NCBI RefSeq assembly: GCF_013167455.1
Contig: NZ_CP038328.1
Length of the DNA stretch: 64,000 nt
Strand: one strand, 5' to 3'
Source of the DNA: Escherichia coli O157:H7
GTDB taxonomy: Bacteria; Pseudomonadota; Gammaproteobacteria; Enterobacterales; Enterobacteriaceae
Made by a program: the position numbers and the translations under genes. The stretch's first letter is position 1, and the number at the start of each line of letters is the position of its first letter. Below the pieces are notes generated by a model. That model was not told the DNA's origin and did not search any database. It saw nothing but the letters and a program-made list of their open reading frames with translations. This document shows positions 29,511 through 30,488 of this stretch, piece after piece.

Positions 29511-30488
29511 ATGATTTTCACGTCAAGTTGCTGCGATAATTTATCAATAGATGAGATTATCGAACGTGCTGAAAAAGGCGATTGCGAGGCTCAATATATT
29601 GTTGGGTTTTATTATAATCGCGATAGCGCAATTGACTCTCCGGACGACGAAAAGGCCTTTTACTAGCTGAAGCTGGCCGCTGAGCAAGGTCATTGTGAAG
29701 CACAGTATTCCTTAGGGCAAAAGTATACCGAGGATAAAAGCCGTCATAAAGATAATGAGCAAGCCATCTTCTGGCTGAAAAAAGCTGCCCTACAAGGCCA
29801 TACTTTCGCTTCCAACGCCCTTGGCTGGATACTGGATCGTGGAGAAGACCCCAACTATAAAGAAGCGGTTGCCTGGTATCAGATAGCCGCGGAGAGCGGA
29901 ATGTCTTATGCGCAAAATAATCTTGGGTGGATGTACAGAAATGGCAACGGAGCCGCACAAGACTATACGCTGGCATTTTTCTGGTACAAACAAGCTGCAT
30001 TACAAGGCCATAGTGACGCGCAAAACAATCTGGCCGATCTTTATGAAGACGGAAAAGGCGTTGCTCAAAACGAGACACTCGCCGCATTCTGGTATTTGAA
30101 AAGCGCACAGCAGGGTAATCGGCATGCTCAGTTTCAAATTGCATGGGATTATAACGCTGGCGAAGGGGTGGACCAGGACTATAAGCAAGCGATGTACTGG
30201 TATCTGAAGGCTGCCGCTCAGGGGAGCGTCGGCGCTTACGTCAACATCGGTTATATGTATAAACACGGACAAGGCGTTGAGAAAGATTATCAGGCTGCCT
30301 TTGAATGGTTTACGAAAGCCGCTGAATGCAATGACGCCACTGCCTGGTATAACCTGGCCATTATGTATCACTACGGAGAAGGAAGACCTGTCGATCTCCG
30401 ACAGGCTCTCGACCTGTATCGTAAAGTTCAGTCATCCGGAACCAGAGATGTCAGTCAGGAAATTCGTGAGACTGAAGATTTACTGTAG
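29511..30488 (+). pseudogene. ybeQ: Sel1-repeat protein YbeQ interrupted by an in-frame TAG at codon 52
   Basis: ATG at 29511 opens a frame reading ...DDEKAFY*LKLAAEQG...; TAG at 29664-29666 sits where a Sel1 repeat expects Trp (TGG). The frame then runs 274 codons to the TAG stop at 30486-30488 (track ORF 29901..30488 is its 3' part). Confidence 0.7.

Follow-up and report, generated by a model that had tools for sequence, protein, structure and literature searches.

A lineage-specific amber codon in ybeQ of Escherichia coli O157:H7, probably a product of neutral decay in the HscC gene cluster

The ybeQ locus of Escherichia coli O157:H7 raises a simple question: does a reading frame that is interrupted at its fifty-second codon still give rise to a useful protein, or is it what is left of a gene? 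We addressed this question in a window of 64,000 nucleotides from contig NZ_CP038328.1 (assembly GCF_013167455.1), the features of which are collected in Table 1. Translation from ATG 29511 gave DDEKAFY, then TAG as codon 52, then LKLAAEQGH, and the frame past codon 52 was open for 274 codons to the natural TAG at 30486-30488. An earlier note, made from the letters of the window, had placed an amber codon at 29664-29666, codon 52 from ATG 29511, with 274 codons downstream, and had predicted a gene cut off after 51 residues; the coordinates matched exactly, and the stop was confirmed by translation. An extra in-frame ATG stands two codons upstream of the annotated start (window 29505-29513, ATGATAATG). 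SD pairing is weaker at this upstream ATG (-3.4 kcal/mol, against -6.2 kcal/mol for the annotated start), which makes 29511 the more likely start.

Table 1. Features of the 64,000-nucleotide window that bear on ybeQ, with positions counted from the first letter of the window.
Feature	Position	Strand	Status or basis
Two tRNA-Gln(CUG) genes, glnV/glnX type, wild type, not supE	10640-10826	+	ARAGORN, sequence
hscC	22664-24334	+	intact in the window
djlC (ybeV) pseudogene, GAA to TAA at codon 151, stop at 25393-25395	24394-25845	-	sequence and comparison
ybeU	25842-26549	-	intact in the window
ybeT	26651-27205	+	intact in the window
djlB	27215-28642	-	intact in the window
ybeR	28639-29346	-	intact in the window
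ybeQ pseudogene, conceptual 325-aa Sel1-like repeat protein	29511-30488	+	translation, PGAP, Pfam PF08238, Sakai ECs_0682
Residual ORF, 51-aa N-terminal stub ending within Sel1 repeat 1	29511-29666	+	translation
Premature amber codon W52*, mutated base A at 29665, ancestral G	29664-29666	+	translation, ortholog alignment
Hypothetical internal-start ORF, 195 aa, Sel1 repeats 4-8	29891-30488	+	ORF list
Terminator-like hairpin directly 3' of ybeQ	30501-30524	+	sequence

The ancestral state of codon 52 was read from an ortholog alignment that took in strains ZF8-1 (99.6% identical over the locus), EV36 (K-12-like) and 2017C-4109. The codon is TGG in ZF8-1 and EV36, within identical surrounding sequence, and TAG in 2017C-4109, a strain identical to the window over the locus and separated from it by 9 SNPs and 1 indel over 64 kb. 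O55:H7 strain CB9615 has G at the base equivalent to 29665, and this is exactly the one difference between its ybeQ and that of the window. The suggestion that a single TGG to TAG change had occurred was thus borne out in ZF8-1, EV36 and CB9615: the orthologs have Trp and no stop at this codon, and the context is conserved. From the aligned sequences, W52amber is one G to A transition, TGG to TAG, at 29665.

The intact counterparts show what was lost. The O55:H7 gene encodes an intact Sel1 family TPR-like repeat protein (WP_000578169.1) and is 100% identical to the window allele bar one base. K-12 ybeQ (b0644), likewise intact, occupies the same locus with the same synteny (ybeL / ybeQ / ybeR-djlB) and a 978-bp frame, and K-12-like identity is 98.2%. 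In contrast to the K-12 and O55:H7 genes, the window allele has TAG rather than TGG at codon 52 and encodes 51 aa rather than 325 aa. The alleles of Sakai (ECs_0682) and EDL933 (Z0791/Z0793) are identical to that of the window, with no difference. The frame is accordingly that of a pseudogene: the close relatives with full-length ybeQ (O55:H7, ZF8-1 and K-12-like strains) have the sense codon TGG where the window has a stop.

The distribution of the two alleles was then assessed by searching 5,426 complete E. coli genomes with 53-mers that had the variant base in the middle, so that each 28-base megablast seed must contain that base. The TAG 53-mer matched 298 genomes, among them EDL933, EC4115, Xuzhou21, SS52, FRIK strains and 86-24; Sakai and TW14359 share the allele. 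Sixty sampled carriers had genomes of 5.1-5.8 Mb, and every serotype-labelled one was O157:H7 or O157. A sequencing or assembly artefact of the window, which the earlier note had named as a way for its claim to fail, has a negligible chance of being the explanation. Many laboratories and platforms contributed to the 298 independent assemblies that share this allele, which rules out an assembly error at 29665 and leaves the in-frame TAG genuine, and the TAG was already present in the 2001 sequences of EDL933 and Sakai (per Zhou et al. 2010, PMC2806823).

The TGG 53-mer matched at least 2,415 of the 5,426 genomes, a lower bound because nearby SNPs disrupt the seeds in other lineages, and its matches take in every O55:H7 genome: CB9615, RM12579, DEC5A/B/D/E, TB182A and USDA5905. 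A 501-bp haplotype of ybeQ with codon 52 repaired was matched perfectly in 12 genomes only: O55:H7 strains, three isolates from the environment or from primates, and two genomes whose alleles are of O55:H7 type across the whole cluster. Each labelled O157:H7 genome differs from it by exactly one mismatch. Since TAG occurs in labelled O157:H7 genomes and TGG in all O55:H7 genomes, and the haplotype matches agree, genome comparison places the origin of W52amber on the stem of O157:H7: later than its divergence from O55:H7, and earlier than the diversification of today's O157:H7 strains. Over 1,161 bp, 100% identity is shared by at least about 223 of the 298 carriers (about three quarters, as estimated from rank spacing). 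With most carriers identical, a perfect open frame past the stop is what would be expected for a very young mutation, and their near-identity gives no power to detect either decay or constraint in the 3' part of ybeQ.

One O157:H7 genome, TR01, has TGG. It was considered as a revertant or a basal strain and rejected as either: its 16-kb region (NZ_CP033605.1, 753596-769648) is only 98.5% identical to that of the window, with 234 SNPs. TR01 also differs in its alleles of all genes from hscC through lptE, and both djlC and ybeQ are intact. Because of the 234 SNPs in 16 kb and the different alleles of each cluster gene, the TGG of TR01 is attributed to a recombinational replacement with a foreign segment, one that has restored both pseudogenes.

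We next considered what the interrupted frame encodes. Pfam PF08238 gave 8 Sel1 matches on the repaired YbeQ translation, with E-values from 9e-11 to 4e-4, and W52 falls inside the first of them, residues 26-61. All seven later repeats have Trp at the equivalent site (W88, W122, W158, W194, W230, W266 and W302), within the motif A-x-x-W-[YLF]-x-x-A-A-x-x-G. The Pfam placement of repeat 1 and the Trp of the later repeats both agree with the earlier proposal that the TAG sits at the consensus Trp of a Sel1 repeat. The 51-aa stub has no complete Sel1 repeat, and the encoded product therefore falls short of a family whose members have at least one. Its exact sequence is recorded on at least 1,000 contigs, for example as EDL933_0719, a 'hypothetical protein'. 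RF1-type termination at codon 52 would release a 51-residue peptide and leave out 84% of YbeQ (274 of 325 codons). The 3' 822 nt would go untranslated and, with mRNA decay or Rho-dependent termination acting on it, would probably be under-expressed and functionless. The truncation is likely to have no polar target, as the terminator-like hairpin and the convergent orientation of the next gene, ybeL, indicate that ybeQ is monocistronic.

Full-length YbeQ could still be made if the amber were read through, by a suppressor tRNA encoded elsewhere or by near-cognate decoding, to a useful extent. The base after the ybeQ stop is C, and TAG-C is a comparatively weak termination context; low-level near-cognate readthrough of UAG is moreover general in E. 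coli. The tRNA genes argue against this reading. ARAGORN found seven tRNA genes in the 64-kb window, of which four are tRNA-Gln, with anticodons TTG, TTG, CTG and CTG, and none has a CTA/CUA anticodon. The earlier note was correct that neither glnV nor glnX of the window has a supE-type CUA anticodon: both read CTG, and the glnU/W-type genes read TTG. All four tRNA-Gln genes are wild type, which rules out supE suppression of the ybeQ TAG for the window.

A supE 53-mer (CTG to CTA), used as a positive control and a wider test, matched 158 of the 5,426 genomes. The 40 carriers sampled from these 158 were all K-12-type laboratory strains of 4.5-4.94 Mb (C600, DH1, JM109, TG1 and J53 among them), and none was an O157-sized genome, so that supE was detected only in K-12 laboratory strains within this sample. 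An efficient amber suppressor would also be costly, since ybeQ itself ends in TAG, so that YbeQ too would be extended, and several hundred other E. coli genes do the same. Readthrough would, in addition, put another residue in the place of a conserved structural Trp. We consider useful amounts of full-length YbeQ by this route extremely improbable.

Internal initiation offers a second way in which ybeQ might be shortened and not dead: a 195-aa Sel1 protein of five repeats, started at Met-131, could keep some function. The earlier note had raised this as reinitiation. The first in-frame ATG, GTG or TTG past the stop is ATG 29901, at Met-131, and it is preceded by a GGAG (29891-29894) with a 6-nt spacer (AGCGGA) before the ATG at 29901-29903. 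None of the 38 candidate starts in ybeQ has a stronger predicted SD duplex (-6.6 kcal/mol, against -6.2 kcal/mol for the native start). Met-131 also stands at the start of Sel1 repeat 4 (132-167), so that a protein begun there would consist of complete repeats, which makes sense structurally, and the downstream frame is intact.

Distance and structure speak against such a product. ATG 29901 is 234 nt from the ybeQ stop and is thus neither a close nor an accessible restart site: terminating bacterial ribosomes reinitiate only over a short range, and 234 nt is too far by established mechanisms. The region is strongly structured, with a predicted opening cost of 15.4 kcal/mol for Met-131 against 5.2 kcal/mol for the native start, which puts Met-131 at rank 31 of 38 overall; these opening costs are crude thermodynamic estimates. 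The GGAG arises from the Glu-Ser codons of 'AAESG', a conserved motif of the repeats, and strains whose gene is intact have it unchanged; being part of the repeat and present alongside intact ybeQ, it is no evidence of selection for a start. Messenger RNA left untranslated past a nonsense codon is typically destabilised or Rho-terminated. The 195-aa sequence had no exact match among called proteins, in a collection that also missed the intact O55:H7 protein WP_000578169.1. Judged from these predictions, the 195-aa product looks unlikely, and a functional one very unlikely. Were it real, the nonsense mutation would have remodelled ybeQ and not destroyed it.

Existing annotation agrees with the reading of ybeQ as a pseudogene. 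In a strain whose locus is identical, RefSeq/PGAP marks ybeQ as a pseudogene with an 'internal stop', and the curated Sakai record treats ECs_0682 as a pseudogene too. Table S2 of Zhou et al. 2010 (PMC2806823) contains a single ybeQ substitution, labelled 'ns' and placed at Sakai position 757752, on the O157 branch before the split of Sakai and EDL933, and the orthologue table of the same paper (PMC2806823) has EDL933 ybeQ first split into Z0791 and Z0793. Because ybeQ has a single O55/O157 difference, the published SNP must be W52amber. In today's Sakai record the mutated base lies at 757753, one off the published position; we attribute this offset to a revised sequence version or to renumbering. 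The W52amber pseudogene is therefore already known, both as an annotation and as an entry in a published SNP table.

Searches with the locus tags ECs0682, Z0790 and Z0791 returned no match in the main text of any article and only mentions in the supplementary tables of Zhou 2010, and the literature search found no functional study of YbeQ. A search for ribosome-profiling or proteomic data on Z0791 or ECs0682 likewise found none. A 2017 interactome (PMC5395655) predicted interactions of YbeQ with human ERAD that were specific to lineage I (EDL933, Sakai) and absent in EC4115 and TW14359. All four strains have the identical W52 amber, so that the lineage difference probably reflects the annotation of pseudogene fragments and not biology.

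The genes around ybeQ place its loss in a wider setting. The cluster runs hscC, djlC-ybeU, ybeT, djlB-ybeR and ybeQ. It resembles a duplicated three-gene module, (ybeT, ybeU-djlC) and (ybeQ, ybeR-djlB), adjoining hscC, whose product HscC is an Hsp70 homologue. Both modules pair a Sel1 protein with a divergent operon of a DUF1266 gene and a J-domain gene, with 4-bp gene overlaps at 25842-25845 and 28639-28642. O157:H7 has lost one member of each module, djlC in one and ybeQ in the other. HscC is stimulated by DjlC and presumably by DjlB as well (PMC8215388); both DjlC and DjlB are tail-anchored membrane proteins (PMC8215388). Deletion of hscC, or double deletion of djlB and djlC, caused Cd2+ sensitivity only, and HscC, DjlB and DjlC lay below proteomic detection (PMC8215388).

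The djlC pseudogene of O55:H7 and O157:H7 resembles ybeQ in being due to a single-base nonsense change in the same HscC cluster with the rest of the frame intact. Unlike ybeQ, it is older, its stop is ochre and not amber, and it encodes a J-domain co-chaperone and not a Sel1 protein. The greater age follows from the presence of the codon-151 stop in both the window and O55:H7 CB9615. The CB9615 gene has a second stop, TAG at codon 21, and djlC is intact in TR01 and SK1144. FDAARGOS_946, an O55:H7-type genome, has a frameshifted hscC (extracted segment 1-435, possibly an assembly error) in addition to the djlC stop, which would mean that the cluster has decayed further in the sister lineage.

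Two further possibilities were set aside. An anti-phage defence role was rejected, as PADLOC-DB gave only sub-threshold, repeat-type matches for YbeQ and YbeT (E of 1e-4 or higher, no passing stretch) and no match for HscC, DjlB, DjlC, YbeR or YbeU. Elsewhere in the window, ybeM (deaminated glutathione amidase, 47243-48037, minus strand) is an intact ORF of 264 codons. It was rejected as a second pseudogene: the 'frameshifted' annotation of ybeM in 2017C-4109 stems from a 1-bp deletion, equivalent to window 47982, that is private to that assembly.

The SNPs that separate the window from CB9615 allow the cluster to be compared with its surroundings. Positions 21639-37691 differ from CB9615 by 9 SNPs in 16,053 bp, and seven of the nine lie within the 7.8-kb hscC-ybeQ cluster (22664-30488). 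Six of these seven change or stop a protein: hscC M248I and K520E, ybeU P13S, ybeT A10T, ybeQ W52* and, on the CB9615 side, djlC Q21*. The clustering is not significant by our calculation (binomial P ~0.08, the cluster being ~49% of the 16 kb). The pattern of changes within the cluster, as far as sequence comparison goes, suggests relaxed constraint.

Losses of ybeQ elsewhere in the species point the same way. At least 80% of the ybeQ locus is kept in only 3,844 of the 5,426 complete genomes. By difference, ~600 genomes match positions 752-1161 of the query only, that is, its last third, and ~980 further genomes have no match to the locus. SK1144 (NZ_AP018784.2, extracted segment 5873-6338) has lost ybeR completely, djlB for the most part and ybeQ over its 5' two-thirds, a deletion equivalent to window ~27215-30150. 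The ~600 partial-match genomes probably share a deletion of this type, judging from the one genome examined. Other stubs of ybeQ include one of 57 aa that ends at a stop, recorded on 159 contigs, and one of 88 aa with a frameshift after ~residue 69, on 27 contigs. These inactivating alleles (the 57-aa and 88-aa stubs and the djlB-ybeR-5' ybeQ deletion) affect the same gene as W52amber, and they differ from it in having arisen independently, at other positions and in other lineages. Because such truncations and deletions have occurred independently in many other E. coli, the genome survey marks ybeQ as a dispensable gene that has been lost repeatedly.

Whether the loss in O157:H7 was adaptive was weighed on the same data. 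According to this alternative, selection acting while O157:H7 emerged favored the inactivation of ybeQ, following that of djlC, for instance as an anti-virulence gene or in host adaptation. Fixation of the allele in essentially all O157:H7 sampled would fit, but a clonal lineage is expected to fix whatever mutation falls on its stem branch. Two genes of one cluster were knocked out in the lineage, yet independent ybeQ losses occur in commensal and other lineages, and TR01 regained intact alleles by recombination with no obvious barrier. The concentration of seven of nine SNPs in the cluster, six of them altering or stopping proteins, could also be taken as a sign of selection; the clustering itself falls short of significance, however, and under relaxed selection a large proportion of SNPs is expected to change amino acids. 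No ybeQ phenotype was found in the literature. We regard adaptive loss, with the paired djlC and ybeQ knock-outs selected as O157:H7 emerged, as unlikely, and expression of the 3' two-thirds of ybeQ from Met-131 as a stand-alone protein as very unlikely.

Taken together, these results favor the reading, at a probability of about 0.93, that ybeQ here is an O157:H7 lineage-specific nonsense pseudogene whose W52amber was fixed before the lineage radiated, probably as part of neutral decay of the cluster. The sequence of events would be as follows. The dispensable HscC/DjlB/DjlC cluster would have decayed gradually, and probably neutrally, with djlC lost first in the common ancestor of O55:H7 and O157:H7. 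After the split from an O55:H7-like ancestor, a G to A change turned Trp-52 of the first Sel1 repeat into an amber codon, which became fixed before present-day O157:H7 radiated, because the loss fell on the stem of a clonal lineage.

For the biology of O157:H7 the ybeQ stop matters little: it is another case of gene decay in a young clonal pathogen. Its use lies elsewhere. Position 29665 offers a clean marker SNP for telling O157:H7 apart from its O55:H7 ancestor, and work in which YbeQ is taken for an expressed O157:H7 protein rests on annotation differences over one and the same pseudogene.
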